Origin: Planctomycetota bacterium
GTDB lineage: Bacteria > Planctomycetota > J058
Reading direction: 5' to 3'
Assembly: GCA_023954375.1 (NCBI GenBank)
Contig: JAMLIC010000006.1
Coordinates: 82,972 to 146,971, forward strand
DNA: 64,000 nt
The translations under genes were made by a program, and so were the position numbers. The notes under the pieces were generated by a model, which was not told the DNA's origin, ran no database searches, and was given only the letters and a program-made list of their open reading frames with translations. Below, in pieces: positions 12,406 to 61,833 of this stretch (its first letter is position 1; every line of letters starts with the position of its first letter).

Positions 12406-12413
<8 letters not shown>

Positions 12414-13641: not shown

Positions 13642-13646
13642 ACGAG

Positions 13647-14706: not shown

Positions 14707-14709
14707 GCT

Positions 14710-41412: not shown

Positions 41413-42357
41413 GTGACCCTCCTCACCCGCGACTTCCACCGGTCCGTCCGCCAGGCGCGGATGGCCTTCCTCGACGCGGTCGAGCCGCATCGCGCCGACC
41501 TGTTCCGCTACTGCCGCGGCCTCGCGCCGACCGTGTGGGAGGCGGAGGACCTGGTGCAGGAGACCCTCCTGCGCGCCTTCGCCAAGCTGGCCGAGTGCCA
41601 CTGGGACGTGAAGGACGCGCGGGCCTACCTCCTGCGCGCCGCGACCAACCTGTGGATCGACGGCCAGCGGCGCGCCGGGCGCGTGCGGCTCGAGGACGAC
41701 CTCGAGCCGGCCGCCGCCGAGGACGCCCCGCCGGCCGCCGAGGTCCGCGAGGCCCTCGCGGCGCTCGTGCGCAACCTGCCGCCCCGGGAGCGGGCGGCCG
41801 TGCTCCTCAAGGACGCGTTCGGGCTCGACCTCGACGAGGTCGCCACCTACCTCGAGACCACGCGCGGCGCGGTCAAGGCGGCGCTCCACCGGGGGCGGGC
41901 CCGGCTCGCGGCGCGCGGGGCCGACGCGGTCGCCGTCGAGGGCCGCCCCGACGGCCCCTCGGCGGCGCTCCTCGACCGCTTCTGCGCGCTGTTCAACGCC
42001 CGTGACCTGCCGGCCCTGACCGCGCTCCTCCTCGAGGACGCGACCGCCGAGGTCGTGGGCATGGTGCAGGAGTACGGCCGCGAGCAGGTCGAGAAGGGCT
42101 CGCTCTACCACACCATGTTCGGCGAGGAGGGGCGGCCGCGCGCGGCGCTCCTCGAGTACCTGGGCGAGCCGGTGGTGGTGATCTGGTACACCGGCCCCGA
42201 CGGCGTCGACGCCGTCGAGGACGTCCTGCGGTTCGTCGAGCGCGAGGGGAGGGTGGCGTCCTTGCGCTACAGCTACTTCTGCCCGGAGCTCATCGAGGAG
42301 GTCGGGGCGGCGCTGGGGGTGCCGGTGCGCACGAACGGGCACCGCTACCGGGCCTGA
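41413..42357 (+). CDS. ECF sigma factor with fused C-terminal SnoaL/NTF2-like extension (ECF41/ECF56-type)
   Basis: Sigma-70 region 2 (DLVQETLLRAF...YLLRAATNLWIDGQR) and region 4 (ERAAVLLKDAFGLDLDEVATYLETTRGAVKAALHRGRARL), then a ~120-aa SnoaL-like domain (LLDRFCALFNARDLPALTALLLEDATAEVVG...). No separate anti-sigma gene follows. Confidence 0.75.
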   Translation: MTLLTRDFHRSVRQARMAFLDAVEPHRADLFRYCRGLAPTVWEAEDLVQETLLRAFAKLAECHWDVKDARAYLLRAATNLWIDGQRRAGRVRLEDDLEPAAAEDAPPAAEVREALAALVRNLPPRERAAVLLKDAFGLDLDEVATYLETTRGAVKAALHRGRARLAARGADAVAVEGRPDGPSAALLDRFCALFNARDLPALTALLLEDATAEVVGMVQEYGREQVEKGSLYHTMFGEEGRPRAALLEYLGEPVVVIWYTGPDGVDAVEDVLRFVEREGRVASLRYSYFCPELIEEVGAALGVPVRTNGHRYRA

Positions 42358-43940: not shown

Positions 43941-45305
43941 GTGACCGAGGGGGCCTGCGTCCCCGGGGGTGTGGGCACCCCACGCGAGGTCACGGCGTCG
44001 ACGGGTCGGTGGACGACCCACCCCGGGGGAAGACCAGCACGCCCCGTGAGCGAGTACGAGAACGCCAAGCGGGTGATCCGGCAGATGCGCCTGGGGCGCG
44101 TCGACGCCCAGGTTATGGCCGCCAGGGCCTTCGAGGCCGACCTCAAGGTCGGCCGCCCGGACATCGCGCTCAAGTGCGCCAAGGAGTTCAAGCTCTCGGA
44201 CGACCACGTCACCCGGGCGGCCACGGCGCTGTTCGGCGAGCTCATCAAGCGGCGCATGTACCCCAAGGCGCTGGAGATCGCCCGCAGCTACAACCTCGCC
44301 CACGGCGGCCCGGCCGCGCAGGAGCTCCTGGCGCAGGCGGGCGAGGCGAAGGTCGACGACCCGGCGATCGCCGAGATCCGGCGCATGGCCCGGGCCGCGA
44401 GCGGCGCCCGCGCCGAGGCGACCGAGGCCGACCGGGCGATCGAGCTGATCGAGGCGGCGAAGGCCGGCCGCGACCGCGACCCGCGCGTCCGTGGCCGGGC
44501 CGTGCTCCTGCCGGACGACGGCGAGGTGTGGCTCACGGGCGACCTGCACGGCAACGTCGACAACCTGAAGCGCTTCGCGAAGCTCGCGGACCTCGCCAAC
44601 CACCCCGAGCGGATCCTGGTCCTGCAGGAGATCGTCCACGCGCGGTTCATCACCGCCGACAACAAGGACCTGTCCTTCGTGGCCATCATGGAGGCGATCC
44701 GCCTGATGACCGAGTTCCCGGGGCGGGTCTACTACCTCCTCGGCAACCACGACCTCGCGGTCCACCTCGACCGCGAGCTGGTCAAGGGCGGCAAGTACCT
44801 CAACCGCTACCTCTACCGCGGCATGGCCTACATGTACCGCGAGCGCTGGGAGGACGTGCTGGGGAAGTACCGCGCGTTCGTCGCCGGCATGCCGGCGGCG
44901 ATCTTCGCGCCCAACGGCATCTTCATGGCGCACTCGACGCCGAAGAAGCCGTTCATCCCGACGCTCAGCCGCGACCTCCTCTACGACGCCGGGCCGAAGA
45001 CGCCGCTCCGCAAGCTGAAGCCGGTGGCCGCCCTGGTCAACGGGCGCGAGTACGCCAAGGACGCCGCCGACGAGTTCGCCGACCAGATGGAGGTCGACCT
45101 GCTCCTCTGCGGCCACACGCCCACGAACCGCGGCTGGAAGGTGCCGAACCACCGCCACCTGATCATCGACTCGCAGCACGAGCGCGCCCGCTTCGTCCGC
45201 TTCGACCTGTCGCGGCGCTACACGTCGTCGGTCGAGCTCTCGGGGCAGGTCGGGCTGCTCGATCCGGAAGGCGAGAGCGTCGAGGTCGTGGGCGAGCTGA
45301 TGTGA
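43941..45305 (+). CDS. PPP-family (calcineurin-like) Ser/Thr phosphoprotein phosphatase with N-terminal extension
   Basis: GDLHGNV, GNHD, and LLCGHTP metallophosphoesterase motifs. Starts at GTG 43941; an alternative is GTG 44046. Confidence 0.7.
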   Translation: MTEGACVPGGVGTPREVTASTGRWTTHPGGRPARPVSEYENAKRVIRQMRLGRVDAQVMAARAFEADLKVGRPDIALKCAKEFKLSDDHVTRAATALFGELIKRRMYPKALEIARSYNLAHGGPAAQELLAQAGEAKVDDPAIAEIRRMARAASGARAEATEADRAIELIEAAKAGRDRDPRVRGRAVLLPDDGEVWLTGDLHGNVDNLKRFAKLADLANHPERILVLQEIVHARFITADNKDLSFVAIMEAIRLMTEFPGRVYYLLGNHDLAVHLDRELVKGGKYLNRYLYRGMAYMYRERWEDVLGKYRAFVAGMPAAIFAPNGIFMAHSTPKKPFIPTLSRDLLYDAGPKTPLRKLKPVAALVNGREYAKDAADEFADQMEVDLLLCGHTPTNRGWKVPNHRHLIIDSQHERARFVRFDLSRRYTSSVELSGQVGLLDPEGESVEVVGELM

Positions 45306-45422
45306 GCCTTTCACTTTCCCCTCGCCACCTCGCCGCGGACCGCCCCCGTCGAGCGCCTGATACGCTCCGCCTCGTTCACGTCAGGGGTTGAGGCCGGCCC
45401 TCCCGTTGCTCACCGGGAGGCC

Positions 45423-46457
45423 GTGACCACCAACCACGTGACGAAGGCGTTCACGGAGGTCGACTTCGCCGAGCCCCACCGGGCCCGGCGCAAGGCGCTC
45501 CTCGCGCGGCATCCGGAGGTCCGGGCGCTCTTCGGCTACGACCGCCGCACGGCCGTGGTCGTGGCGGCCGTGGTCGCCCTCCAGCTCGCGCTGGCCTGGG
45601 GCGTCCAGCGCGCGTGGGAGGCCGCCGGCGGGGGCGCCGCGGCCGCGGCGGGGCTCGTCGCGCTGGCGCTCCTCGTGGGCGCGGTCCTGGCGCACTGGTG
45701 CGCCATGGGGATTCACGAGTGCTCGCACGACCTGGCCGCGCGCACGCCGCTGGGCAACCGCCTGGTGTCGCTCCTGGCCAACGTGCCGGTGGTGGTCCCC
45801 GCGGCCATGTCGTTCCACCGCTACCACCTCGACCACCACACGTACCTGGGCGTGCGCGAGCTCGACACCGACCTGGCCCCGGCGATCGAGCACCGCGTGA
45901 TCGACAACGTCGCCTGGCGCAAGCTGCTCGTCCTCCTCCTGTTCCCGGCGCTGTACCTGGTCCGCGGCCTCGGCTTCGCGCAGCGGCCCGACCGCTGGGA
46001 GGTGCTCAACCTCGCGCTGATGATCGGCGTCAACGCGCTGGTCGTCGTCCTCCTGGGCTGGCCCGCGCTGGCCTACCTGTTCCTCTCGTTCTGGTTCGGC
46101 CACGGGGTCCACCCCGTCGCCGCGCACTTCGTCCACGAGCACTACATCTGGACGGCGGGCCAGGAGACCTACTCCTACTACGGCCCGCTCAACCGGGTCA
46201 CGTTCAACGTCGGGCTGCACTACGAGCACCACGACCTGATGAACATCCCCGGCTGGCGCCTGCCCGAGCTGCGGCGCCTGGCGCCCGAGTTCTACGAGGG
46301 CCTCGTGGCCCACCGCTCGTGGACGGCGATCCTCTGGCGCTACGTGACGGACCCGCGCATCGGCCCCTACACCCGGCAGGTGCGCAGCGAGGAGACGTTC
46401 CGGCGCACGCGCGCGCCCGAGCGCCGCACCGGCCACGCGCTCGAGGCCGCCGCGTGA
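45423..46457 (+). CDS. Sphingolipid Δ4-desaturase (dihydroceramide desaturase DEGS/Des1) homologue
   Basis: Collinear with eukaryotic DEGS1. N-terminal Lipid_DES segment [21 protein letters not shown]. His boxes [15 protein letters not shown] and HYEHHD. The C-terminal block [47 protein letters not shown] matches the DEGS1 block [41 protein letters not shown] almost residue for residue. Confidence 0.85.
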   Translation: [344 protein letters not shown]

Positions 46458-47524
46458 CCGGGCTCGAGCTCCGCGACGCGGCGGCCGCGCCGTCCACGGG
46501 CGTGCGCGCGCTGGACGCGCTGGTGGCGCGCGTCCTGTGCGACCCGCGCGACGCCCCGCTCCTGGGCGTGGTCGTGGGGATGAGCCTCGTGCTCGTGCCG
46601 GGCGCGCTCGTCCTCTACGCGCCGGGCGGGTTCCGCTGGCCGCTCGCGGCCGCCTACCTGGCCGCGCTGTTCGGCCTGTTCTTCGACCGCTACATCCTCA
46701 TGCTCCACGCGACGCGGCACCGGCGCCTCTTCCGCCCGGGGCTCGAGCTCGACCCGTGGGTGGACTGGGTCCTGGGGCCGCTGGCGGGCCAGTCGCCCTG
46801 CACCTACCACGCCCACCACCTGGGGATGCACCACGTCGAGAACAACCTGTGGGCCGACGCCAGCTCGACCCTGCCCTACCGGCGCGACAGCGCGCTCGAC
46901 TTCCTGCGCTACTGGGGGCGCTTCCTCCTGGCCGGGGTCGTCGACCTCGTGGCGTACCTGCTCGGCCGCCGCCGCACGAAGCTGGCGCGCCGCGCCGCCC
47001 TGGGCGAGCTGGCCTACCTCGCGGCGCTGGGCGCGCTCCTGTGGGTCGACTGGCGGGCCACGCTGGTCGTGTTCGTCGTGCCGCTCGTCGCGGCCCGGTT
47101 CGCGATGATGGCCGGCAACTGGGCGCAGCACGCGTTCGTCGACCCGGCCGACCCGGGCAACCCGTACCGCAACAGCCTGACGACGATCAACACCCGCTAC
47201 AACCGCCGCTGCTTCAACGACGGCTACCACATCGGGCATCACCTCAAGCCGTCGCGTCACTGGAGCGAGCTGCCCGGCGAGCTCCTCGAGCACCTCGACA
47301 CGTACCGCGATCAGGGCGCGCTCGTGCTCGAGGGGCTCGACTTCTTCCAGGTCTGGGCCCTGCTGATGGTGAAGGACCATGACACCCTCGCCCGTCACGT
47401 CGTCCACCTCGGCGGCGCCCCCCGCAGCCACGACGAGACCGTCGCCCTCCTCCGGGCCCGCCTCGTCCCCGTCCCCGAGCCCGCCCCCGAACCCGTCGTC
47501 GTCCCCGTCGCCGTCGCCGCCTGA
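46454..47524 (+). CDS. Fatty-acid desaturase/hydroxylase superfamily membrane protein
   Basis: GTG start overlaps the DEGS-like stop (GTGA). His boxes HATRH, HAHHLGMHH and HIGHH. Four TM segments. Pro/Ala-rich C-terminal tail VPVPEPAPEPVVVPVAVAA. Confidence 0.7.
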   Translation: MTGLELRDAAAAPSTGVRALDALVARVLCDPRDAPLLGVVVGMSLVLVPGALVLYAPGGFRWPLAAAYLAALFGLFFDRYILMLHATRHRRLFRPGLELDPWVDWVLGPLAGQSPCTYHAHHLGMHHVENNLWADASSTLPYRRDSALDFLRYWGRFLLAGVVDLVAYLLGRRRTKLARRAALGELAYLAALGALLWVDWRATLVVFVVPLVAARFAMMAGNWAQHAFVDPADPGNPYRNSLTTINTRYNRRCFNDGYHIGHHLKPSRHWSELPGELLEHLDTYRDQGALVLEGLDFFQVWALLMVKDHDTLARHVVHLGGAPRSHDETVALLRARLVPVPEPAPEPVVVPVAVAA

Positions 47525-48869
47525 GCCGGCCCGGCCCGTCCCGCGGCTCTCGTTCCTCGGCTTCCTGCGCCACGTGCCGGGGCTCATCGGCGACCGCGCC
47601 GAGACGATCCGCCGCATCGCGGCGGCGCACGGGCCGGTCGTCCGCGTGCCGGTGCCCGGCAAGCCCTTCCACCTGGTGAGCTGCCCGCGCCTCGCGCGCC
47701 ACGTGCTGCTCACGAACAACAAGAACTACCGCAAGAGCTTCGACTGGAAGATCGTCCACTCGCTCCTGGGCGACGGGCTCGTGACCTCGCACGACGACGT
47801 GTGGCGCCACGCGCGCTCGGCGACGGCGCCCGTGTTCCGCCAGGAGCCGGTGATGCGCATGGCCGCCGCCCTGAAGGACGTGGTGGCCGAGGAGGTCGCC
47901 GGCTGGGGGGCGCCCGGCGGCGTCCTTCCGACCGGCGCCGCAACGACGCGGCTGGCCCTGCGCGCCTTCGCGCGCGCGGCGCTGGACGTCGACGCCGACC
48001 CGGTGGACCTCGACGAGATCACGCGCGCCGTCTCGGCGGGCCTGCGCCACCTCGACGCGCGCCTGGGGGCCCCGGTCGACCTGGCGGCGCGCCTGCCCAC
48101 GCCCGGCCGGCTGCGCTTCGCGCGCGCCCGGGCGCGCCTCGACGCCGTCCTCTACCGGTGGATCGACGCCGCCGCCGCGCGCGCGCCGGGGCCGGACCTG
48201 CTGTCGGTGCTCCTCCAGGCCTCGCGCGCCCTGCCCGACCCCGCCCTCGCGCCGCGCGTGTGGCTGCGCGACCAGCTCGTCACCTTCCTGCTCGCCGGGC
48301 ACGAGACGGTGGCCGTGTCGCTCACGTGGTGCCTGCACCTCCTCGCCACCCACCCCGACGCGCAGCGGCGCGCCCGCGAGGGGCTCCCGGGCGACGGCGA
48401 GGCCCTGGGCCCGTGGCTGGGCGCCTGGACCCCGCTCGACGCCGTGATCCACGAGGCCCTGCGCCTGTTCCCGCCCGTCTGGTCGCTCGGGCGCGAGGCG
48501 GTGGCCGACGACCGCCTGGGCGACCTGCACCTCCCCGCCGGCGCGACGGTGATGGTCAGCCCCTACGCCATCCACCGCCGCGCCGACCTGTGGCCCGAGC
48601 CCGACGCGTTCCGGCCGGAGCGCTTCGCCGCCGGCCCGCCGCCGCAGGGCGGCACGGACGGGCTGACCTACCTGCCGTTCAGCGCCGGGCCGCGCCTGTG
48701 CCCGGGCGACCGCCTGGCGCTGGTCGAGCTGAAGCTGGCCCTGCGCGAGGTCCTGCGCCGCTTCGAGGTCGCGCCCACCCGCCCGGGCCCGGTCGCCTGC
48801 GAGGCGCTCATCTCGCTCCGTCCGCGCCGCGAGCTCTTGCTGCGCCTGACCGCCCTGGGCCCGGCGTGA
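47379..48869 (+). CDS. Cytochrome P450
   Basis: I-helix AGHETVA, ExxR (EALRLFPP), haem loop FSAGPRLCPGDRLALVELKLAL. The only in-frame start upstream of the conserved N-terminal PRLSFLGFL motif is ATG 47379, which overlaps the preceding gene by 146 nt; the next is GTG 47572, which truncates it. The start is uncertain and this may be a fusion. Confidence 0.8.
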   Translation: MTPSPVTSSTSAAPPAATTRPSPSSGPASSPSPSPPPNPSSSPSPSPPEPARPVPRLSFLGFLRHVPGLIGDRAETIRRIAAAHGPVVRVPVPGKPFHLVSCPRLARHVLLTNNKNYRKSFDWKIVHSLLGDGLVTSHDDVWRHARSATAPVFRQEPVMRMAAALKDVVAEEVAGWGAPGGVLPTGAATTRLALRAFARAALDVDADPVDLDEITRAVSAGLRHLDARLGAPVDLAARLPTPGRLRFARARARLDAVLYRWIDAAAARAPGPDLLSVLLQASRALPDPALAPRVWLRDQLVTFLLAGHETVAVSLTWCLHLLATHPDAQRRAREGLPGDGEALGPWLGAWTPLDAVIHEALRLFPPVWSLGREAVADDRLGDLHLPAGATVMVSPYAIHRRADLWPEPDAFRPERFAAGPPPQGGTDGLTYLPFSAGPRLCPGDRLALVELKLALREVLRRFEVAPTRPGPVACEALISLRPRRELLLRLTALGPA

Positions 48870-51205
48870 CCTGGCTCGAGGGCGCGCTGCGGCTCCTCCT
48901 GCGCCGCCGGGCGGCGGCCGCGGCGCTGCTGGCGCTGGTCACGGCGGGCAGCCTCGTGGGGGCCTCGCGGCTGACCGTCCAGGGCTCGATCGAGGCGTGG
49001 TTCCTCGAGGACGACGCCAGCCTGGGGCGCTACCACGCCTTCCGCGAGCGCTTCGGCGCGGACGAGTTCGTGGTGGTGGCCGCGATCGGCCCGGGCGCGC
49101 GCACGCCGGCCGGCCTGGCGCTCATGGAGCGCGTGCGCCGCGCGGCCGAGCGCCTCCCCGAGGTCCACCGCACGCGCTGGGTGACGAACGCCGCCGTGGT
49201 CCAGCCGCGGGGCGACGACGCCCTGGACACGGGCCCCCTGGCCGCGACCCTGCCCGCCGACCCGGCCGGCGTCGACGCGCTGTGGGCCCGGGCGGCCTCG
49301 CTGCGCGCCGCCCGCGGCCTGGTCGTCGACGGGCCGGCGCCGGCCACGTCGATGCTCGTGGAGCTGCGGCGCGAGGCGCAGACGATCGACGGCAAGCTGG
49401 CGCTCGTGGACGGCCTGCGCCGCGCCCTCGCCGCGGCGGGCGCCGCCGAGGTGCCGGACGTCGAGGTCGTGCTCAGCGGGCCGCCGGTCTTCGACGAGGC
49501 GTTCGTCCGCCACACCGAGCGCGACCTCGCGGCCCTGGCGCCGCTGGGGCTGGCCCTCCTCCTCGGCGTGCTCTGGGTGTCCCTGCGCAGCCTGGCGCAC
49601 GCGCTCGTCCCGGTCGGCGTCGTCGCCGCCGCCACCTGCTGGCTCCTCGGCGCGATGGGCCTGATCGGCCACGAGCTGGGGATCACCTCGAGCAACCTCC
49701 TGTGCGTGGTCCTGGCCGTCGGCGTGGCGGACGGGGTCCACCTGGTGAGCGAGCTGCGCGCGGGCCTCGCGCGGGGGCTGGCGCGCGAGGACGCCATCTG
49801 CGCCGCGGCGGCCGGCGTGTTCGTCCCCTGCACGCTGACCACGGCGACCACGGCGCTGGGGATGCTGTCCCTCTGCGCGGGCGAGATCCTGCCGATCCGC
49901 GAGTTCGGCCTGCAGGCCGCCCTGGGGGTGGCGCTCTGCTGGGCGGCCACGTTCACCCTGGCGCCGCTGCTCGCCTCCGTCGTCGCGGCGCGCGCGGCGC
50001 CCGCGCCCGGCCCGCACTGGGCGGCGCGCGTCGGCCGACTCGGCCGCCGGGGGCGCCTGGCGGTGCTGTGGGGCGCGGCGCTCGTGGTGGCCGCCTCGCT
50101 GGCCGGGCTGGCCCGCCTCGAGGTGGGGGTGAACCCGGTGGAGTACTTCCGCCGCGACGACCCCGTGCGCCGCGCGACCGAGCGGATCGACGCCACCCTC
50201 GGGGGCACCGCGAACCTCGAGCTGTGGGTGCGCGCGCGCGGGGAGGCGGGCCTCGAGGACCCGGCCGCGCTGGCGCGGCTCGAGGCCCTGCGCCGCGACC
50301 TCGAGCGCGAGCGCGGCGTCTCCTACAGCCAGTCGCTCCTCGACCCCATGAGCGACCTGCACCGCGCCTTCGCCGGCGAGGACGGCCTCCCCGCGGCGCG
50401 GGAGCTGGCCGCGCAGTACCTCCTCGTGCTCGCGTCGGACGAGCAGCTCGGCCGCCTCGTCCAGCCCGACCACCGCGGCGGCCGGCTCAGCCTGCGCACG
50501 CAGATGTCCATGACCGACCGGCCGCTCGAGGTCATCGAGCGCGTGGCGGCGCGCGCGGCGGACCCGGCCCTGGCGGCCGCCGGGGTGGACGTCGAGGTCA
50601 CGGGCTACGTGCACCTGATGGCGACCATGTACGACCACCTGCTGCGCAGCCAGCTGAAGTCGCTCCTGCTCGCCTTCGTGACCGTCACCGTCTGCATGGT
50701 GGCGCTGGCGCGCTCGCTGCGCCTCGGCCTCGTCTCCATGGTCCCCAACGTCCTGCCCGTCGTGGTCGGCGGCGGCCTCATGGGGGCGCTCGGCATCCGC
50801 CTGGACGTGGGGACCGTCATGATCGCCGGGGTCGTGCTCGGGCTGGTCGTCGACGACACGACGCACCTCCTGGCGCGCCTGACCCGCTCCCTGCGGGCCG
50901 CGCCCGACCGGCCCGCGGAGGACGCGGTCGCGCAGGCGCTGGGGGAGCTCGGCCGCCCGCTCGTGACCACGAGCGTGGCCCTCGCGGCGGGCTTCGGAGC
51001 GCTCGCCTGCGGGCACTTCCTCGTGAACGTCTACTTCGGGCTCATGTCCGCGGTCGTGGTGCTCGTGGCGCTGGTCGCCGACCTCGTGGTCACGCCCACG
51101 CTCGTCGTCGTGCTCGCGCCCTGGCTCCTCGGGCGCGGCGAGCCGGCGGCGGCCGGCGCGCCGTGCGAACGCGCGGCCGCGCCCCCGGCGAGCGCGGCGG
51201 CCTGA
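48866..51205 (+). CDS. MMPL/RND-superfamily lipid transporter (HpnN-like)
   Basis: GTG start overlaps the P450 stop (GTGA). Two repeats of a periplasmic domain followed by a TM bundle, 12 TM helices in all. The MMPL/sterol-sensing-like TM region (GLALLLGVLWVSLRSL...GVADGVHLVSEL) is duplicated in the C-terminal half. Confidence 0.8.
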   Translation: MTWLEGALRLLLRRRAAAAALLALVTAGSLVGASRLTVQGSIEAWFLEDDASLGRYHAFRERFGADEFVVVAAIGPGARTPAGLALMERVRRAAERLPEVHRTRWVTNAAVVQPRGDDALDTGPLAATLPADPAGVDALWARAASLRAARGLVVDGPAPATSMLVELRREAQTIDGKLALVDGLRRALAAAGAAEVPDVEVVLSGPPVFDEAFVRHTERDLAALAPLGLALLLGVLWVSLRSLAHALVPVGVVAAATCWLLGAMGLIGHELGITSSNLLCVVLAVGVADGVHLVSELRAGLARGLAREDAICAAAAGVFVPCTLTTATTALGMLSLCAGEILPIREFGLQAALGVALCWAATFTLAPLLASVVAARAAPAPGPHWAARVGRLGRRGRLAVLWGAALVVAASLAGLARLEVGVNPVEYFRRDDPVRRATERIDATLGGTANLELWVRARGEAGLEDPAALARLEALRRDLERERGVSYSQSLLDPMSDLHRAFAGEDGLPAARELAAQYLLVLASDEQLGRLVQPDHRGGRLSLRTQMSMTDRPLEVIERVAARAADPALAAAGVDVEVTGYVHLMATMYDHLLRSQLKSLLLAFVTVTVCMVALARSLRLGLVSMVPNVLPVVVGGGLMGALGIRLDVGTVMIAGVVLGLVVDDTTHLLARLTRSLRAAPDRPAEDAVAQALGELGRPLVTTSVALAAGFGALACGHFLVNVYFGLMSAVVVLVALVADLVVTPTLVVVLAPWLLGRGEPAAAGAPCERAAAPPASAAA

Positions 51206-51230: not shown

Positions 51231-51944
51231 TCAGACCACGTGCGACCACGCGAACGCCGGGCAGCCGATCGCGACGACCTCGACCTCGCCCGTGTAGACC
51301 CGCGCCCCGGGCGCGGCGAAGCCGACCTTCTCGTGCACGAAGGTCACCGTGCGAACGGCCCGCGCGGCGGCGCCCAGCGGGACGCCCCGGTCGGAGTCGA
51401 GGCCCGAGGGGATGTCGACCGCGACCCTCGGCCGCGGGTCCTGATCGAGGGCGCGGACGAGGCCGAGGCCCGGCTCGCGCAGGGCGCCCTCGAGGCCCGT
51501 CCCGTAGAGCGCGTCGACGACCAGCGCCGCCCCGGGCCGCGCCGCGAGCCAGGCGGCCAGGGCGGCCCCGTCGGGCGCCTCGTCGACCTGCTCCCCCGCG
51601 CGCTCGAGCACGGCGAGGTTCACGCCGGCGTCGGTCCCGCGGTCGACCAGCGCGAGGCGGCCGGCGAGGGCCACGCGCGGCCGCCAGCCGAGGAGCAGGA
51701 GGTGGCGCGCGAGGACGAAGCCGTCGCCGCCGTTGTTGCCGCGTCCGCAGACGACCAGGACCTCGGCCCCCGGCGGCGCGCCCCGCGCGCGCAGGTCGCG
51801 GTCGACGGCCGCGGTCAGGCCGCGGCCGGCGTTCTCCATGAGGACGAGGCCCGGGAGGCCCAGGTCCTCGATCGCCCGGCGATCGACCTCGCGCACCTCG
51901 GCGCGGGAGAGAGGGCGCGGTGGCCGGGCGAAGGTCGACTCCAT
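51231..51944 (-). CDS. nnrE: NAD(P)H-hydrate epimerase (YjeF N-terminal domain)
   Basis: AEVREVDRRAIEDLGLPGLVLMENAGRG...VLVVCGRGNNGGDGFVLARHL is the YjeF_N signature. ATG at 51944. The track ORF is extended upstream. Confidence 0.75.
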   Translation of the reverse strand: MESTFARPPRPLSRAEVREVDRRAIEDLGLPGLVLMENAGRGLTAAVDRDLRARGAPPGAEVLVVCGRGNNGGDGFVLARHLLLLGWRPRVALAGRLALVDRGTDAGVNLAVLERAGEQVDEAPDGAALAAWLAARPGAALVVDALYGTGLEGALREPGLGLVRALDQDPRPRVAVDIPSGLDSDRGVPLGAAARAVRTVTFVHEKVGFAAPGARVYTGEVEVVAIGCPAFAWSHVV

Positions 51945-52182
51945 GGCGCCCGAAGATACGGCCCTCGTGGCCGGCGACCAGGACACCTGGCGGGGACGCG
52001 CGTGGCCCCTCGGTTCCGGCGCCTCGGCCGGGCCGAGGCCCCCTGGCCACGCGGCCGCCGCCGCCGCGGGACGCCCGGGGCGCCCGAGGAGCGCGCGGCC
52101 GGCCGCCGCCTGGGCGCCGCCGTCGACTCCCTTGCAGGGCACGTCTATCATGTGCCGCCAACGGCAGGAGCGCGCGACACGC

Positions 52183-54942
52183 ATGAAGATCTCCGTCATC
52201 GGCACCGGCTACGTCGGCCTCGTCACCGGGACCTGCTTCGCCGACAACGGCAACGACGTCTGGTGCGTCGACATCGACGAGAAGAAGATCGAGCGGCTGA
52301 ACCGCGGCGAGGTCCCGATCTACGAGCCGGGCCTCGACCAGATGATCGAGCGCAACGTCCAGGGCGAGCGCCTCCGGTTCACGACCGACCTGGCCGACGC
52401 CGTCCGCCGCACGCGGATCGTGTTCCTCTGCGTCGGGACCCCGTCCGCGCCCGACGGCTCGCCCGACATGCGCTACGTCTACAAGGCCGCCGAGGACGTG
52501 GCCCGCGCCATGGAGGAGCACACGATCCTCGTCCTCAAGTCGACCGTCCCCGTGGGCACGGCCGCCGAGGTGCGCAAGCGCGTGGCGGCCGCCACGAAGC
52601 TCCCCTTCGACGTCGTCAGCAACCCCGAGTTCCTCAAGGAGGGCCACGCGGTCGACGACTTCCTCAAGCCCGACCGCGTCGTGATCGGCACCGACGACCC
52701 ACGCGTGGCCCTGATCATGAAGGAGCTCTACGACCCCTTCGTGCGCACGGGCAACCCGATCCTCGTCATGGACAACGTCTCGGCCGAGCTGACGAAGTAC
52801 GGCGCCAACGCGCTGCTCGCCGCGCGCATCTCGTTCATGAACGAGCTGGCCAACCTCGCCGACCGCGTCGGCGCCGACATCAACCAGGTGCGGCAGGGGA
52901 TGGGCAGCGATGCGCGGATCGGACACTCGTTCCTGTTCCCGGGCATCGGCTACGGGGGCAGCTGCCTCCTCGGCCGCGAGACCGTCCTGGTGCGCCAGGG
53001 CGGGCGGGTCCGGCTGACCCGCTTCGACCGCCTGTTCGCGGCGCTCGCGCCCGGGGCGGGCGATGAGGCCGGCGCGGTCGCGCCGGAGGGGCTCGAGGTC
53101 CTCTCCTGGGAGCCGTCGACGGGCGCGCCGTCGTGGCGGCCGGTCTCCGCCGTCACCCGCCGCCCCTTCGAGGGCGAGGCGCTCGAGGTGCGCACGAAGA
53201 TGGGCCGCCGGGTCCGCTGCACGCCCGACCACCCGTTCGTCGCCTCCGACGCGGCGCACGGTCCGCGGCGCGTCGTGCTCGCCGCCGAGCTGACCGCCGA
53301 CCACTGGCTGCCCCTGGCGCAGGGGCGCGAGCAGGGCGAGGCGCCGCGCCGCGTCGACCTGCTCGGGAGCCTCGAGCGGCTCGGCGTGCGCCAGGACGAG
53401 GTGATCGTCCGCTTGGCCCCCGCGGTCGCCGCGGCGCTGGACGTCCGCGTCGTCCGGGCCGCGATCGAGCGCCTCGGCGAGCACGCCTCGCCCGCATCGC
53501 GCGCCCACGACATCGTCCGCAACGGCGCGCTCCGCCTCCACGAGGCGCGCGCGCTGGGGGTGGCGCTCGAGGGCGCCGCGCTCGGGACGGCGAAGAACGG
53601 CACCTACGTGCCGACCGGCCTCGACCTCGACGAGGCGTTCTGGCGCGTCGTCGGGCTCTACATCGCCGAGGGTCACTGCTCGGTCGACGGGCGTCGGCAC
53701 CGGCTCTCCTGGTCGTTCCACCCGACCGACGAGGACGCCCTCGTCGAGGAGGTGGCGGCCTTCTGGGAGCGGCTGGGCGTCAAGGCGACGGTCCTCCGGC
53801 GGTCCACCACGACCCAGGTGACCGTCTCGTCGCGCCTCCTGGCGACCTGGTGGCTGGGTGAGCTCGGCCTCGGCGCCGACTGCTACGCGCAGCGCGTCCC
53901 CGACCTCGTCTGGGAGCAGCCCGAGGCCCACCGCCGGGCGCTGCTCGCCGGGGTCTGGCAGGGCGACGGGTCGTGGTCGCGCGTCAACGGCGGCCCGAGC
54001 GTCGTGCTCGAGCACGGCACGGCCAGCCCGGAGCTGGCGGACGGCCTCCTCCGGCTCCTCGGGGACCTCGGCATCGTGGCGCGGACCAAGGTGGGCCGCA
54101 CCGCGAAGTCGACCGTCGACACGCACTGGCTCGTGGTCTCCGGCGCCGACCAGGTCGAGCGGCTGGTCGACCTGGTGAAGCCGGCCCAGCGCGCCGACCT
54201 CGTCGGGAGCGTCGCGCGCCAGCTGAAGCGCATCGCCCCAACGGGGTACCGGCGCTTCGAGGGGGACGCGTCGGCCTGGGTCCGCGTGACCGAGGTCCGT
54301 CGCCGCCCCTACCAGGGCTGGGTCTACTCGCTCGAGGTCCCCGGGCCCGAGACGTTCGTGACGACGGGCGGCCTCGTCGTCCACAACTGCTTCCCCAAGG
54401 ACGTGGACGCCCTCGGTTACACCGGCAAGAACGCCGGCATGGACCTCAAGCTGCTCGCCGCCACCAACGAGGTGAACCGCACGCAGAAGCGGGTCCTGTT
54501 CGACAAGATCAGCGCGCGCTTCGGCGGCGACCTGAAGGGCAAGCGGATCGCGATCTGGGGCCTGGCGTTCAAGCCGCGCACCGACGACATGCGCGAGGCG
54601 CCCTCGCTGACCGTGATCGGCCTCCTGCTCGAGGCCGGCGCCACCGTCCACGCCTACGACCCGGCGGCGACCGAGACGACCCGCGCCGTGCTGGGCGACA
54701 GGATCCAGTACGCGCAGAAGCAGTACCGGGCGCTCGAGGGCGCCGACGCGCTGGCGATCTGCACCGAGTGGAACGAGTTCCGCCGCCCCGACTGGGAGCG
54801 GATCAGGGCGTCGCTCCGGCAGCCGATCATCTTCGACGGCCGCAACATCTTCGAGCCGGCGCGCGTCGAGGAGGCGGGCTTCGAGTACTACGGCATCGGC
54901 CGCGGGCGCAAGCTCGAGCTGTCGCCGCGGGCGAGGGGCTGA
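52183..54942 (+). CDS. ugd: UDP-glucose 6-dehydrogenase interrupted by an in-frame intein (precursor 919 aa)
   Basis: N-extein MKISVIGTGYVGLVTG...GIGYGGS, then the intein, then C-extein CFPKDVDALGYTG...KPRTDDMREAPS... Splicing would restore the catalytic motif GGSCFPKD. All Ugd signature segments are present in the exteins. Confidence 0.9.
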   Translation: MKISVIGTGYVGLVTGTCFADNGNDVWCVDIDEKKIERLNRGEVPIYEPGLDQMIERNVQGERLRFTTDLADAVRRTRIVFLCVGTPSAPDGSPDMRYVYKAAEDVARAMEEHTILVLKSTVPVGTAAEVRKRVAAATKLPFDVVSNPEFLKEGHAVDDFLKPDRVVIGTDDPRVALIMKELYDPFVRTGNPILVMDNVSAELTKYGANALLAARISFMNELANLADRVGADINQVRQGMGSDARIGHSFLFPGIGYGGSCLLGRETVLVRQGGRVRLTRFDRLFAALAPGAGDEAGAVAPEGLEVLSWEPSTGAPSWRPVSAVTRRPFEGEALEVRTKMGRRVRCTPDHPFVASDAAHGPRRVVLAAELTADHWLPLAQGREQGEAPRRVDLLGSLERLGVRQDEVIVRLAPAVAAALDVRVVRAAIERLGEHASPASRAHDIVRNGALRLHEARALGVALEGAALGTAKNGTYVPTGLDLDEAFWRVVGLYIAEGHCSVDGRRHRLSWSFHPTDEDALVEEVAAFWERLGVKATVLRRSTTTQVTVSSRLLATWWLGELGLGADCYAQRVPDLVWEQPEAHRRALLAGVWQGDGSWSRVNGGPSVVLEHGTASPELADGLLRLLGDLGIVARTKVGRTAKSTVDTHWLVVSGADQVERLVDLVKPAQRADLVGSVARQLKRIAPTGYRRFEGDASAWVRVTEVRRRPYQGWVYSLEVPGPETFVTTGGLVVHNCFPKDVDALGYTGKNAGMDLKLLAATNEVNRTQKRVLFDKISARFGGDLKGKRIAIWGLAFKPRTDDMREAPSLTVIGLLLEAGATVHAYDPAATETTRAVLGDRIQYAQKQYRALEGADALAICTEWNEFRRPDWERIRASLRQPIIFDGRNIFEPARVEEAGFEYYGIGRGRKLELSPRARG
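52963..54387 (+). mobile_element. Intein (475 aa) with LAGLIDADG homing-endonuclease domain inside ugd
   Basis: Begins with Cys1 (CLLGRETVLV). Ends with the canonical His-Asn (GGLVVHN) followed by +1 Cys (CFPKD). Block B-like TPDHPF. Two LAGLIDADG motifs: VGLYIAEGHCS and LLAGVWQGDGSWS. Confidence 0.85.
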
Positions 54943-57012: not shown

Positions 57013-57639
57013 TCAGCGCTCGGCGACGAGCGCCGCGCGGACGGGCGAGGCATCGGCGCCCTCGAGGCGGAGCGGCAGGGCGACGAGCGTGTAGCGCCCC
57101 GGCGGCGCCTGCTCGAGGACGAGCCCCTCGAGGTTGGCGATGCCGTGGCGCAGCAGCGCCTGGTGCGTGAGGAGCGCCCGGTCGTCGTACGGGTCCACCG
57201 AGGGGGTGTCGATCCCGACGAGCACCGCGCCGCGCGCGGCCAGGTGCTCGATCAGCTCCGGCGAGAGGCTGGCGAAGTCCGCGTTCCAGGCCTCGGGGTC
57301 GGGGAAGGTGCCCGTCCGCAGGAGGAGCCGCGGGGTCGCGACCTCGTCGGGCAGGTGCTCGGGCAGGACGCGCGCGCCGCGGGCCACGTCGACCCACATG
57401 ACCTGGCAGGGCCCGTAGTAGAGCTCGAGGGGGCGCGCGGCGATGTCGGGCGCGCCGGCGGCGTAGTGCGAGGGCGCGTCGGCGTGCGCGCCCAGGTGCA
57501 CGGTCGTCTCGACCGCGCTCAGGTCGATGTTCGCCCCCTGCGCGATGCTCAGCGACGCGCGGCGCCGGTAGGGCACGTCGTCCGGCCACACCGCGATGCG
57601 CTCGCTCACGAGCGGGGAGATGTCGATCAGCCTCGGCAT
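57013..57639 (-). CDS. Putative cyclase / kynurenine formamidase family protein
   Basis: HLGAHADAPSH matches the cyclase-family metal motif HxGTHxDxPxH. 208 aa. ATG at 57639. Confidence 0.65.
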   Translation of the reverse strand: MPRLIDISPLVSERIAVWPDDVPYRRRASLSIAQGANIDLSAVETTVHLGAHADAPSHYAAGAPDIAARPLELYYGPCQVMWVDVARGARVLPEHLPDEVATPRLLLRTGTFPDPEAWNADFASLSPELIEHLAARGAVLVGIDTPSVDPYDDRALLTHQALLRHGIANLEGLVLEQAPPGRYTLVALPLRLEGADASPVRAALVAER

Positions 57640-57656
57640 GCCGCCACGATACGCGG

Positions 57657-58876
57657 TCAGGCCTCCCGCAGGAGCCGCGGCGCGGCGAGCGCCGCCCAGG
57701 CCGCGGTCGCCAGGAGGAACGCGGCCGCGGAGAGCCCGAGCCACAGCCACAGGCGGGCGGGGTCGAAGCTGACGGCGAGCCGCAGCGCCAGCGCGGCGAC
57801 GAGCAGGAGGCCGAGCGCGGCCACCTGCCAGGGGCGCCCGAGGAGGCGGCGCTCGTCGCCGGCGTGGGCCAGGGTCACGTGGACGGCGACCGAGAGCGCC
57901 AGCGCGGCGAAGCCGCCGAGGAAGAGCACGTGCAGGGCGCCCGTGCGCTGGGCCGGGAAGGCCGCGGCGAGGAGCAGCCCGACCGGGACGCACCAGGCGC
58001 CCAGCCACACGAGCCAGCGATGCAGGCCCGGCAGGGTCGGCCGGCGGGCGAGGCCCGCGGCGCCGACGAGGACGACGAGCGCGACGAGGCCGCGCACGCC
58101 GAGGCCGGCGCGCGCGTCCACGTACTCCTCCACGACGAAGCTCCCGGCGAGGAGCAGCGCCGCCAGGAGGTGCGAGGCGAGCGCCCGGCGGTCGCGCGGG
58201 CCGGCGTCGGGTGGCGCGGTCGCGCGCGTGATGAGCGGGATGACCATGCTCCCGACGCCCAGGATCAGGCCCACGAACATGCCCTGGACGAGGAGGCCCT
58301 TGCCGACGGTGTGCAGGGGGCGCCACTCGGGGCCGAGCGCGCGGAGCGCCATGAGGAGCGAGCCGGCCAGGCCCATGAGGAACGAGAGCGGCACCCACAC
58401 GAACGCGACGGGCGGCCGCCGCCGGGCCGCCGCCCCGCCGCGCAGGCGGCGGACGACGAACCCGACCAGCGTGGCGACGAGGACGAGCCAGGCGACCTGC
58501 GACCAGGCGAACCGCTCGAACACGGCGGCGATCGTGGTGAGGGTCGGCGCGAGGGCCGCCACGACGACGACGCCCGCCGAGGCCGGCGCGCTGCCCGTCC
58601 GGCGCGGGATGGCCGTGAGCAGGAAGCCGGCCGCGAAGCACATCATGAAGCCCTGGACCTGGGCGATCGCGTGGTCGGCCGACGAGAACGTCCCCACACC
58701 GGCCGTGGCCAGCAGCAGCCACTTGGCCACGCCGACCCAGCCCAGGACCACGCCGAGGGGGAACAGGAGCCGGTACGGCTCGCGGCGCCACAGCGGGGCG
58801 TCGTCGGTGAGCGGCGGAGGGACGAGGTCGTGGCCGGCGCCGACCGGCCCCTCGCAGCTCGCCTCCTCGGGGATCA
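57657..58876 (-). CDS. nnrS: NnrS-family haem-copper membrane protein
   Basis: About 12 TM helices. N-terminal PLWRREPYRLLFPLG. HAIAQVQGFMMCFAAGFLLTAIPRRTG corresponds to the NnrS HAHEMVFGF...GFLLTAVPNWTG signature. Confidence 0.6.
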
Positions 58877-59131
58877 CCTGGGTCGGGCTGGGCACGGGTC
58901 CTCCGGGGGACCCTCCTCGCAAGCCGGGGGCCGGGCGAGCGGCGCGCAGGTGCAAGCGGCGCGTCGCACGGGCGTGACCGGGTCACGCGCGCGTGACTCT
59001 CGAGGGGCCTCACCACGGCGGACACGGAGGAGCGCCCAGGGGTGTTCGTCCGTGCCCTCCGTGCCCCCCGTGGTGATCCTGGTCGGGCTTCAACGTCGAT
59101 TCTGGCGGGAGCCAGGGTCGGCGTTGCAGCC

Positions 59132-59350
59132 TGTCCTCGAAGCCCTTCCTCGCAGACGGCCGAGCCGCCTCCGAGCACACCTCACCGCGCCTTCGCAGCA
59201 GGAGCGTCAGGCGAGCCACCCCACGCGGCGCTGCCGCGGCCAAAGCCGCGATCACACCAGGGCCTGTCCTCGAACCCGTCTTCGCAGACGGCCGAGCCGC
59301 CTCCGAGCACACCTCACCGCGCTTCCGCAGCAGGAGCCTCAGGCGAGGCC
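59132..59350. repeat. Two direct copies of an ~86-nt unit (59132-59217, 59265-59350; period 133 nt)
   Basis: Unit is tgtcctcgaa(g/c)cc..tcgcagacggccgagccgcctccgagcacacctcaccgcgc(c)ttc(c)gcagcaggagc(g/c)tcaggcgag, about 93% identical between copies. The spacer carries gccgcgatcacac, which also occurs at 59474 at the 3' end of the RidA-domain gene. Confidence 0.7.
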
Positions 59351-59387
59351 GAGGAGGGCGAGGCGATGCGGCGCGAAGGCGAGGGAC

Positions 59388-59445
59388 GGGGCCCCCGGCC
59401 CCCCCCCCCCCCCCGGGGGGGGGGGGCCCCCCCCCGCCGCCCCCG
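59388..59445. repeat. Extreme homopolymer palindrome C16-G12-C9
   Basis: ggggcccccggCCCCCCCCCCCCCCCCGGGGGGGGGGGGCCCCCCCCCgccgccccc lies about 40 nt downstream of the stop of the minus-strand AmnA-RidA gene. Confidence 0.8.
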
Positions 59446-59485
59446 ACGCACCGCAGCGCCCCGCCATCCTCGGCCGCAGCCGCGA

Positions 59486-60901
59486 TCACACTAGCGCGAT
59501 CACCTTCAGCTCCACCGCGATCGGCGTGGGCAGGGCCGAGATCGCCAGCGTCGTGCGCGTCGCGCCGACCGGGGCGAAGTACTCCTTGTAGACCGCGTTG
59601 TAGGCGGCGAAGTCGCGGTCCATGTCGATCAGGAAGGCGGTCACGTCGATGACCTTGTCGAGCGACGAGCCTGCCGCCTCGAGGATCGCCTTCACGTTCT
59701 CGATCGTGGCCCGGGTCTGCGCCGCGGCGTCGTAGGCCTGCGGCCGCCCCTGCGCGTCGCGCACCGGCCCGCCGGGGATCGCGTTCGTCCCCGGCTGACG
59801 GGGGCCCACGCCCGAGAGGTAGAGGAGGTCGCCCACGCGGCGCGCGTGCGGGTAGGCGCCGACCGGCGCGGGCGCGCCGCTGGCCATGACGACCTCGCCC
59901 CCCGGCGCGGACGAGGGCGCGGACGCCGGCGCGGCCGCAGGCGCGCCACCGGCGCGCGGCGCGGGGTCCGCCGGGGCGGGCGCGCCGGGGGCCACGCCCG
60001 CCGAGAGGACGTTGCGGTCGCCCCGGAAGACCTCGACGTCCTCCTCGTCGAACTCCTTGCTCGCCGCCGGCCGCGTGCTCGGGGCCAGGCCGACGAGCGC
60101 GGCGCCGGTGCCCCACACAGGCTGGTACTCGAACACCGTCCCCTCGTAGTCGTTGTGCTGGCCGAGGAACGACGCCAGCCACCAGACCGCCTTGAGCTTG
60201 CTGTCGGCGTTGGCCTGGGCGCTGAACTCGCGCGCGAGCTGAGCCACGTCCTCGAGGCGCCCCTCGGCCAGGAGCTCCAGGAGCTTCCGGTTCCACTCGT
60301 CGTCCTTGAGCGAGGAGATCCGGTCCTCGCGCGGGTCGATCTCGTGGGTGAACAGGCGGTTCGAGAGCGCCGTCACGGCGACGGCCACCGCGCGCCGCCC
60401 GCCCCGCTCGACCGCGTCGCGGGCGGCCTTGCCGAGGACGAGCGTCTCGGCGCGGTCCGCGTACATGTTGCACGAGACGATCGTCGCCGGCAGCCGGTTG
60501 TCCGGGTTCAGGAGCTTCAGCGCCACGATCGAGCCGGTGTCGATCGGGAAGCCCTTGTAGGCGACCGTGCGCGCGTGGAGCCCGCGGGCGCGGGCGCAGG
60601 CCTCGTACTCCTTCGCGAAGCCGGCGTCGATCCGGAACCGGTAGGGCAGGTCGCCGAGGTCGTGCCACTCCGGGTCGACGTGCACCCACTCGGGCTCGGG
60701 GTCGGCCTGGAGCTGATGACCGATCACGCTCGGCCACTGCGTGCTGTAGAGCACGAGCAGGTCGGCGTCCGTCGCCTCGAGCTCGGCGCGCACCCGGTCG
60801 TAGCCGGCGCGCAGCTTCTGCCAGGCGGGCGAGCGCTCGGGCGCCAGGAGCGGGTGCGGCATGCCCGCGACGATGTAGCCGCGCACGACCTTGCCGCTCA
60901 C
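59486..60901 (-). CDS. amnA: 2-aminophenol 1,6-dioxygenase alpha-subunit-like protein (LigB family) fused in frame to a C-terminal RidA/YjgF-family domain (putative 2-aminomuconate deaminase)
   Basis: GTG start overlaps the AmnB stop (GTGA). The AmnA-like region carries LVLYSTQW, GFPIDTGS, EIDPREDRI and DDEWNRKLLEL. An Ala/Pro linker (GAPAPADPAPRAGGAPAAAPASAPSSAPGG) follows. A complete RidA domain comes next (MASGAPAPVGAYPHARRVGDLLYLSGVGP...TRTTLAISALPTPIAVELKVIA). There is no stop between the domains. The RidA part has its own internal ATG at 59887. Confidence 0.75.
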   Translation of the reverse strand: MSGKVVRGYIVAGMPHPLLAPERSPAWQKLRAGYDRVRAELEATDADLLVLYSTQWPSVIGHQLQADPEPEWVHVDPEWHDLGDLPYRFRIDAGFAKEYEACARARGLHARTVAYKGFPIDTGSIVALKLLNPDNRLPATIVSCNMYADRAETLVLGKAARDAVERGGRRAVAVAVTALSNRLFTHEIDPREDRISSLKDDEWNRKLLELLAEGRLEDVAQLAREFSAQANADSKLKAVWWLASFLGQHNDYEGTVFEYQPVWGTGAALVGLAPSTRPAASKEFDEEDVEVFRGDRNVLSAGVAPGAPAPADPAPRAGGAPAAAPASAPSSAPGGEVVMASGAPAPVGAYPHARRVGDLLYLSGVGPRQPGTNAIPGGPVRDAQGRPQAYDAAAQTRATIENVKAILEAAGSSLDKVIDVTAFLIDMDRDFAAYNAVYKEYFAPVGATRTTLAISALPTPIAVELKVIALV

Positions 60902-61818
60902 GCCCGCCTCCCCGCGGCGCCGGCCCCGACCTTGGCGGAGCCCGGGTCCCACTCGACGACCGCGTTGCCCGTGCCGATGACGCTGCCGTAGGCGTGGACC
61001 TCGGCCGGGTACTCCGGGAAGTCGAGCGCCGCCATGAGCCACGTCAGGCTGCCCGCCTTGGCCTCGCTGACGGCCTGCTCGATGAAGTCGGGCAGCTCGT
61101 CCACGAGCTGCCGCGTCTTGCCCTTGCGCATGAGGTCCAGCACGCGCATGTCCCAGAGGTACTGGCCGTGGTGGTAGACGTGCTCGTGCGTCATGTCCTC
61201 GGGGACCGCGGGCTCCTCCGTGAAGTGGCGGTGGCTGAGCGAGTTGCTCGCCAGGAGCACGGCGCGCTTGCCGCTCCGCTCGACGGCGCGGCGCGTGGCC
61301 TGGCCCAGCGCGATCATCTCCGCCTGGCCGACCTCGTCGCTGTAGTAGAAGAACGCGCCGTTCGAGCTGATCCCGACGATCGGCTTGTCCCAGGCCGGGT
61401 TGGTCAGGTGGCAGGAGATGATCGTCCCGTAGTCGACGCGGAAGTTCGGGTTCCGCATCATCTTCGTCACGAGGCCGGCCGCCTTCGCCTCGTCGTGGAT
61501 CGCCTCGGCCAGACCCACGTCGACGTCGAGCGTGTAGTGGAACCGGAACAGGTTCGGGAAGATCGGGTCGACCGACAGGCTCTCGAAGTGCGGCACGCCG
61601 AGGAAGTGGTGGCCGACGTGCGTGCGCCAGTGCGGCGAGTGGACGATCAGGACGTCGTGGTCCTTCTTCGCCAGGTTGCGCCGCAGCCGCTCGTAGCCCC
61701 AGCGCAGCTCCTCCCAGCCGCACTCGGCGCGCGGCTCGTTCTGCGGCGGGTTCTCCGCGTAGACGAGGTGCGGGGGGTGCGGCGCCAGGGCGCCCAGGAC
61801 GATCTCACCGCGGGCCAT
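60898..61818 (-). CDS. amnB: 2-aminophenol 1,6-dioxygenase beta subunit (LigB-type extradiol dioxygenase, catalytic)
   Basis: MARGEIVLGALAPHPPHLVYAENPPQNEP...LIVHSPHW...HHFLGVP...VDPIFPNLFR...GLVTKMMRNPNFRVDYGTI is nearly collinear with AmnB. Confidence 0.85.
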   Translation of the reverse strand: MARGEIVLGALAPHPPHLVYAENPPQNEPRAECGWEELRWGYERLRRNLAKKDHDVLIVHSPHWRTHVGHHFLGVPHFESLSVDPIFPNLFRFHYTLDVDVGLAEAIHDEAKAAGLVTKMMRNPNFRVDYGTIISCHLTNPAWDKPIVGISSNGAFFYYSDEVGQAEMIALGQATRRAVERSGKRAVLLASNSLSHRHFTEEPAVPEDMTHEHVYHHGQYLWDMRVLDLMRKGKTRQLVDELPDFIEQAVSEAKAGSLTWLMAALDFPEYPAEVHAYGSVIGTGNAVVEWDPGSAKVGAGAAGRRA

Positions 61819-61833
61819 CGGACCCTCCTCCGC

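Follow-up and report, generated by a model that had tools for sequence, protein, structure and literature searches.

The stretch of DNA analyzed here, called the window below, is 64,000 nucleotides (nt) long and originates from an uncultured organism deposited as a Planctomycetota bacterium (assembly GCA_023954375.1, contig JAMLIC010000006.1, positions 82,972 to 146,971 of the forward strand). On its plus strand, at 45423-51205, a block of four consecutive, co-directional genes was recognized: a homologue of the DEGS sphingolipid desaturases (DEGS-like), a second desaturase or hydroxylase (here called Des2), a cytochrome P450 and a transporter of the RND superfamily. The window has a GC content of ~76%, and mechanical lists of its open reading frames (ORFs) are crowded with spurious frames. 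Because of this high GC content, the genes, including those of the block, were chosen by the GC content at each codon position (~0.97-1.0 at the third position, GC3, and ~0.5 at the second, GC2). All the evidence presented is computational. The block and its borders are organized as follows (aa, amino acids; +, plus strand):

43941-45305: Metallophos gene, upstream of the block, ending 117 nt before it
45306-45422, +: upstream intergenic region of 117 nt, with GGGAGG at 45415-45420
45423-46457, +: predicted DEGS-family membrane di-iron enzyme (sphingolipid delta-4 desaturase / C4-hydroxylase type), 344 aa; Pfam Lipid_DES + FA_desaturase
46454-47524, +: Des2, second His-box desaturase/hydroxylase, 356 aa; Pfam FA_desaturase, frame chosen by GC3
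47379-47524, +: out-of-frame overlap of 146 nt between the 3' end of Des2 and the 5' end of the P450 gene
47379-48869, +: cytochrome P450, 496 aa from the most likely start, ATG 47379 (431 aa from GTG 47574); Pfam p450
48866-51205, +: HAE3/MMPL-type RND inner-membrane transporter, 779 aa; Pfam MMPL
51231-52205: convergent YjeF_N gene after the block

Two of the three junctions are start/stop overlaps of four nucleotides. At 46454-46457, a GTGA places the GTG of Des2 over the stop codon of the DEGS-like gene, and at 48866-48869, the GTG of the pump gene overlaps the P450 stop codon in the same way. The initial annotation had described a third overlap of this kind at 47379; the ATGA found there is not a stop/start overlap, because its TGA ends a non-coding frame (ORF 46537-47382). 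Des2 runs on in its high-GC3 frame (GC of 0.94/0.51/0.96 by codon position) to a stop codon at 47522-47524. The P450 gene most likely starts at ATG 47379, inside Des2, so that the two genes would overlap by 146 nt. This start was set from two conserved features, seen in the window and in four relatives of the block (loci L173, L001, L091 and L092). An in-frame ATG lies inside the 3' end of Des2, within the Des2 codons for KDH(D/G)TLA, in 5/5 of these block-carrying loci, and all five encode a conserved peptide, PRLSF..FLG.VPGL, between the Des2 stop codon and the next possible P450 start. In the window, the P450 frame contains no start codon from the Des2 stop (47524) to GTG 47574, and among close relatives, the indels in the overlap stretch are multiples of three. 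Automatic gene callers place the start downstream, giving products of 431-434 aa; a start at GTG 47574 is disfavored, as it would leave out conserved coding sequence ahead of it. At the front of the block, the GGGAGG is only 2 nt ahead of GTG 45423, and the DEGS-like gene could alternatively start at an in-frame GTG, 45438. A promoter and terminator scan at the block gave nothing usable at 76% GC, and no promoter-like site was found in the upstream region.

The first protein is assigned to the DEGS family from its N-terminal Lipid_DES domain and its His boxes. Lipid_DES (PF08557) matches residues 16-40 with 39.6 bits (cut-off 23), and Pfam FA_desaturase matches with 73.7 bits. The three His boxes read HECSH, [8 protein letters not shown] and HYEHH and do not vary among 22 bacterial homologues; the C-terminal block [31 protein letters not shown] was read from the translation. 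Aligned to human DEGS1, in a sequence of unverified provenance, the protein has 36% identity over 312 residues (E = 2e-68). These data bear out the DEGS-like assignment made in the initial annotation; its label "eukaryote-type" is misleading, as the protein is a member of an extensive bacterial family found in many phyla, including Myxococcota, Bacteroidota and Bdellovibrionota. These three phyla include known sphingolipid producers. A recent transfer from eukaryotes was discarded as an explanation, given the depth of the bacterial family and the many phyla it covers. Among the matches listed, the nearest named homologues belong to metagenome-assembled genomes (MAGs) of Myxococcota. No NCBIfam model matches the protein, and no relative of the DEGS family was found among solved structures. 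The family is already recognized by automatic annotation: its members carry the JGI name "sphingolipid 4-desaturase/C4-monooxygenase" and the NCBI name "fatty acid desaturase". To our knowledge, the characterized members of the DEGS family all act on dihydroceramide.

The eukaryotic enzymes DEGS1 and DEGS2 (Des1/Des2; KEGG K04712) share with the window protein the Pfam architecture Lipid_DES + FA_desaturase, the three His boxes and the C-terminal [10 protein letters not shown]...HxEHHD block, and the identity to the DEGS1 sequence extends over almost the full length. In contrast to them, the window protein is bacterial, and its activity and substrate are predicted ones. Its gene also differs from theirs in its setting: it lies in a putative operon with Des2, a P450 and an RND pump and has no adjacent cytochrome b5 partner.

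Searches with hidden Markov models (HMMs) identified FA_desaturase, p450 and MMPL in the other three proteins, in agreement with the second desaturase, P450 and RND/MMPL pump named by the initial annotation. Des2 matches Pfam FA_desaturase with 75.8 bits and has the His boxes HATRH, HHLGMHH and HIGHH. No NCBIfam family reached its cut-off, and no particular subfamily can be assigned. The Des2 family is very large (more than 1800 matches); the 120 homologues listed are all at least 49% identical and are mostly solitary genes with unrelated neighbors, which give no hint of a substrate. The P450 (Pfam p450, 191.3 bits) carries the heme loop FSAGPRLCPG (FxxGxRxCxG) and the motif EALR (ExxR). The closest solved structures are 7wzl, CYP97A3/C1, CYP170A1, CYP3A4 and CYP175A1, and no named CYP equivalog in NCBIfam reached its cut-off.

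The pump is, from its profile matches, a member of the RND superfamily of the HAE3/MMPL type. Pfam MMPL matches in two stretches (87.9 bits), and the HAE3 model TIGR00921 aligns with residues 13-749 at 167.9 bits, under its cut-off of 351.9. Scores against the models of HpnN, the hopanoid transporter, are far under the equivalog cut-offs (TIGR03480, 82.8 vs. 751.85; NF052374, 53.7 vs. 1100). The best solved relatives are HpnN (6wu0), followed by Patched, and orthologues of the pump match the Sterol-sensing family of Pfam. In mycobacteria, lipid-modifying enzymes are likewise co-transcribed with an RND exporter of the MMPL family, and the window pump does match Pfam MMPL. Unlike the mycobacterial MmpL proteins, it scores far under the cut-off of the MMPL subfamily model TIGR00833 (109.6 bits vs. 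874.7), and its host is an organism of Gram-negative type with another lipid class.

The complete four-gene order, with 4-nt overlaps or short gaps, is found in L003/L004, L173, L001, L091 and L092. L003/L004 and L173 are 94-97% identical to the block and have the same flanks as the window. The other three are more distant: the DEGS-like protein, Des2, P450 and pump are 76%, 65%, 70% and 61% identical in L001, and 77-79%, 68%, 68-71% and 58-60% identical in L091 and L092. The flanks of these three loci are unrelated to those of the window. Four unrelated genes that merely lie side by side without cooperating are, thus, a highly improbable explanation. The same order, with overlapping or nearly abutting genes, persists at 58-79% identity in three lineages with different flanks, and the window block itself has two start/stop overlaps and one overlap of 146 nt. 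As the order is kept where the flanks are not, chance adjacency is practically ruled out, and the block is, on these comparative grounds, a self-contained functional unit, as the initial annotation had supposed for the four linked genes.

The same comparison defines the upstream border. The Metallophos gene was rejected as a member of the operon, since it is not present in L001, L091 or L092 and is conserved solely in near-identical relatives (L003, L173); the block, therefore, starts after the 117-nt intergenic region. A gene for an ECF-type sigma factor with a C-terminal SnoaL_2-like extension (41413-42357, +), 3 kb upstream of the block, is also kept in L003 and L173.

Beyond these loci, the genome and metagenome scans gave at least 600 matches each, and the relatives listed are all at most 57% identical. 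The full block was found in 0/80 genome loci and 0/80 metagenome loci at this level of identity, and no further copies occur among the listed matches of either scan. All-against-all clustering of the ORFs from 88 DEGS-like loci revealed no widely recurrent neighbor family, antisense artefacts aside; most members of the DEGS-like family are thus solitary genes. Serine palmitoyltransferase (Spt) genes, present in few DEGS-like loci, were missed by this clustering and detected by a scan of all fetched loci for the pyridoxal-phosphate-site motif of alpha-oxoamine synthases, followed by HMM scans.

Bacterial ceramide synthesis has been elucidated only recently. It involves Spt, the ceramide synthase bCerS, of GNAT type (the literature search gave no confirming statement), and CerR, a reductase of the NAD-dependent epimerase family. 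L133 (8423-17780 of the 411-kb metagenome contig ORMF011117230.1) has a complete cluster of the ceramide type, in which a DEGS-like gene comes first and is followed by genes for Spt, a 378-aa GNAT protein and a CerR-like NAD-dependent epimerase/reductase. The top NCBIfam match of this Spt is a serine palmitoyltransferase model, with 490.7 bits, under the cut-off of 640. Beyond the reductase, the opposite strand carries genes for a phosphopantetheinyl transferase (PPTase), a thioesterase and a FAAL-ACP protein. An FA_hydroxylase+PAP2 fusion, divergent on the minus strand, has "phosphoinositol dihydroceramide synthase" as its top NCBIfam match.

A second cluster, a putative sphingolipid operon in L047 (7792-15944 of the Verrucomicrobiota MAG contig JBKPDP010000045.1), has the order KdtA, HAE3/MMPL RND pump, DEGS-like, FA_hydroxylase, Spt-like (463 aa, with an N-terminal extension), CDP-alcohol transferase, GNAT and CDP-alcohol transferase. 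The start of the DEGS-like gene overlaps the end of the HAE3 RND gene; judging from this gene order, such an overlap does occur in a sphingolipid setting. The L047 pump is collinear with the window pump at 23% identity (74 bits), and it is a candidate bacterial sphingolipid exporter. The CDP-alcohol transferases of this cluster suggest a head group of the phospho-inositol type. The order DEGS-like, FA_hydroxylase, Spt-like recurs in L085 (Ca. Udaeobacter, Verrucomicrobiota). In L070 and L087 (Cyclobacteriaceae), the DEGS-like gene is located beside KAS/SDR/GNAT genes and an Spt gene (629.8 bits, cut-off 640), and in L169, an Spt-like gene comes after it. Of the evidence available, these neighborhoods argue most strongly that ceramide may be a substrate of bacterial DEGS-like enzymes.

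The block is best read as an operon for the oxidative tailoring and export of an outer-membrane lipid that would be made elsewhere in the genome, with (dihydro)ceramide as its substrate; we give this reading a probability of roughly 0.5. The DEGS-family di-iron enzyme would take a hydrogen beside the C3 hydroxyl of the long-chain base, leaving C4 either hydroxylated or part of a 4,5 double bond. Des2 and the P450 would desaturate and/or hydroxylate the lipid further, in the base or in the N-acyl chain. Energized by the proton motive force, the HAE3/MMPL RND pump would then extract the modified lipid from the inner membrane, so that it can be delivered to the outer membrane. What we infer here is the substrate, the regiochemistry of the individual enzymes, the direction in which the pump transports and the electron donors, for which the block itself contains no genes. 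For a desaturase-type enzyme acting on bacterial sphingolipids, the nearest precedent is CC_0202, an acyl hydroxylase of the DesA/FA_desaturase family that is reported to hydroxylate Caulobacter sphingolipids (PMC11324152). The initial annotation had stated that, as far as known, no characterized enzyme was available for the delta-4-desaturase step in bacteria; in agreement with this, the literature search yielded no characterized bacterial DEGS homologue or dihydroceramide desaturase. As to export, a study of 2024 states that bacteria have no identified flippase or transporter for sphingolipids (PMC11087976).

Several observations weigh against ceramide as the substrate. The Spt/bCerS/CerR pathway, as in Caulobacter and Bacteroides, adjoins other DEGS-like genes (L133, L047, L070, L087), but no spt, cerS or cerR gene, for which the initial annotation had advised looking elsewhere in the genome, was found within the 64-kb window or in the flanks of any block-carrying locus. 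A P450 and a pump are additions of the block relative to that pathway. Near the block, there is no gene for a ferredoxin, a cytochrome b5 or a reductase. The nearest relatives of the P450 are mostly terpenoid or carotenoid oxygenases, and the best solved relative of the pump is a hopanoid transporter. The phylogeny points the same way. In a rough neighbor-joining tree (305 trimmed columns, rooted on the human DEGS1 sequence aligned above), the block clade is monophyletic, sister to L005, and nested among sequences of Sorangium, Archangiaceae, Myxococcaceae and Polyangiaceae. The DEGS-like protein of the block is thus placed in a Myxococcota-rich subclade apart from the Spt-linked ones, and Myxococcota contain at least three DEGS-like lineages. 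As the block lies in a subclade other than the Spt-linked clades, carrying the function over from them is plausible, not secure, and a shift of function in its subclade is possible. The ceramide tailoring proposed in the initial annotation, hence, keeps the support of DEGS-like genes in Spt/GNAT/CerR-like clusters of other phyla; what it lacks is spt/cerS/cerR in the window and a common subclade, as the tree, a check suggested by that annotation, indicates.

The initial annotation overlooked another lipid class, to which the block of L001 points. On this contig (ENA ERZ795105 NODE_440, 8868-16946), the genes are arranged on one strand as hpnH, DEGS-like, Des2, P450, RND and hpnG-like, with gaps of 125, -4, 46, -4 and 10 nt in gene order. 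The hpnH product scores 512.8 bits against its equivalog TIGR03470 (cut-off 225). For the downstream gene, HpnG is the best family, with 107 bits, under the cut-off of 187. Both genes are apparently co-transcribed with the three oxygenases and the pump, and it is very unlikely that they flank the block by chance. A DUF2505 gene is also found on the same strand, with short gaps. In an explanation built on this arrangement, an extended hopanoid would be hydroxylated or desaturated by the three oxygenases and then carried to the outer membrane by an HpnN-like pump. This speaks against ceramide and draws further support from the affinity of the pump to HpnN, with Patched next and with Sterol-sensing matches among its orthologues, and from the closest characterized relatives of the P450, which are carotenoid, sesquiterpene and sterol oxygenases. 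The genes for bacteriohopanepentol and bacteriohopanehexol (BHpentol/BHhexol) and for unsaturated bacteriohopanepolyols are unknown (PMC12583986).

The resemblance to an hpn cluster has its limits. The window pump is, like HpnN, an RND protein of the HAE3/MMPL type, yet it remains far under the HpnN cut-offs given above. Genes of the hpn type occur in one of the four distinct flanking contexts of the block: the pump is located in an hpn cluster in L001, and not in the window, L003, L173, L091 or L092. None of the other ~170 DEGS-like loci contains hpnH, and where other members of the DEGS-like family have linked genes, these are spt and bCerS-like rather than hpn. We know of no DEGS-family enzyme acting on a hopanoid, nor of oxygenases of the three types of the block in hpn clusters. 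Hopanoid tailoring and export is the main rival of the ceramide reading, and is considered rather unlikely. Its specific form, a hydroxylation at C-31/C-30 next to the C-32 hydroxyl of bacteriohopanepolyols, or a desaturation of their rings, is put forward just as tentatively. By analogy, the C-32 hydroxyl of bacteriohopanetetrol and the adjacent C-31 would correspond chemically to the C3 hydroxyl of sphinganine and its neighboring C4.

In the subclade of the block, the partners of the DEGS-like gene vary. In a Myxococcota MAG (GCA_039187775.1; L005, 4028-7629, and L006), a DEGS-like gene (61% identity) and a P450 gene (51%) are followed by a sulfotransferase gene, which hints at a sulfated lipid product. 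L102 contains a P450 and a DEGS-like gene alone; L007, L009 and L094 combine the DEGS-like gene with an FAD-linked oxidase. In L174 (10993-12723, Archangiaceae MAG contig JAYVCD010000156.1), the DEGS-like gene is joined by a 4-nt overlap to a Des2 gene fused to a Condensation/WS_DGAT domain, with the fusion gene cut by the contig end. This variability, resembling the diversification of accessory lipids, would fit a DEGS-like enzyme recruited to a non-ceramide substrate: another amphiphilic lipid or lipid-like secondary metabolite, such as a long-chain amino alcohol or diol, an ether lipid, a sulfated or acylated lipid or a carotenoid. The mostly solitary Des2 homologues, with no hint of a substrate, and the resemblance of the P450 to carotenoid hydroxylases agree with it. 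However, no PKS, NRPS, crt or terpene cyclase gene lies beside the block in any context, and the sulfotransferase, acyltransferase and oxidase partners fit the decoration of a ceramide head group or hydroxyl equally well. Moreover, the sequence features of the DEGS family are wholly kept in the block protein. Such a product is deemed unlikely.

Two narrower proposals were rejected. A carotenoid as the main explanation, suggested by the similarity of the P450 to CYP97/CYP175 and by weak CrtW/CrtR matches of the L047 DEGS-like protein, fails for lack of crt genes in any context. A sterol, suggested by the Sterol-sensing and BstA matches, was discarded because these matches are weak and generic to RND pumps and because the P450 is not CYP51-like.

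The remainder of the window encodes Ser/Thr kinases, sigma-54 activators and TPR proteins and is Myxococcota-like in look. Its closest public relative is L173 (GCA_019636275.1, contig JAHBXY010000007.1), 96% identical and labeled at NCBI as a "Planctomycetes bacterium" MAG. Given the Myxococcota-like gene content and the nearest named homologues, the L173 bin may be mislabeled. After the block, at 52183-54942 (+), a UDP-glucose 6-dehydrogenase gene is split by a 475-aa intein (52963-54387) with a LAGLIDADG endonuclease domain. The intein is inserted directly ahead of the Cys in the motif GGS|CFPKD, which we take to be the catalytic cysteine of the enzyme. It is also present in L003; the gene of the 96%-identical L173 is intein-free and encodes 443 aa, so the presence of the intein varies between close relatives. 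L173 also has transposase genes after its UXS gene, unlike the window. On the minus strand, at 57013-63288, lies a run of genes that is similar to a cluster for the meta-cleavage of aminophenol or hydroxyanthranilate: it encodes a cyclase of the kynurenine-formamidase type, NnrS, two LigB-type dioxygenase subunits, the first of them fused to RidA/L-PSP, and an aldehyde dehydrogenase. Another minus-strand gene (2727-6326) encodes a 1199-aa protein with a Laminin_G_3 domain, a di-heme cytochrome c peroxidase domain (CCP_MauG) and DUF4214 repeats.

Penta- and hexa-functionalized as well as unsaturated bacteriohopanepolyols are used as biomarkers. If the substrate of the block were a hopanoid, the genes for BHpentol/BHhexol or for the unsaturated bacteriohopanepolyol biomarkers, which have long been sought, would be identified, filling a gap in geobiology, and a sphingolipid desaturase family would have been recruited to triterpenoids. 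The new elements are the operon architecture and its ties to candidate exporters. The block, together with the DEGS-Spt-bCerS-CerR and RND-DEGS clusters of other phyla, addresses two gaps, the bacterial C4 desaturase/hydroxylase of long-chain bases and the sphingolipid exporter. For both, it supplies candidate genes: those of the widespread DEGS-like family and those of an HAE3 RND pump, which overlap or abut the DEGS-like gene.

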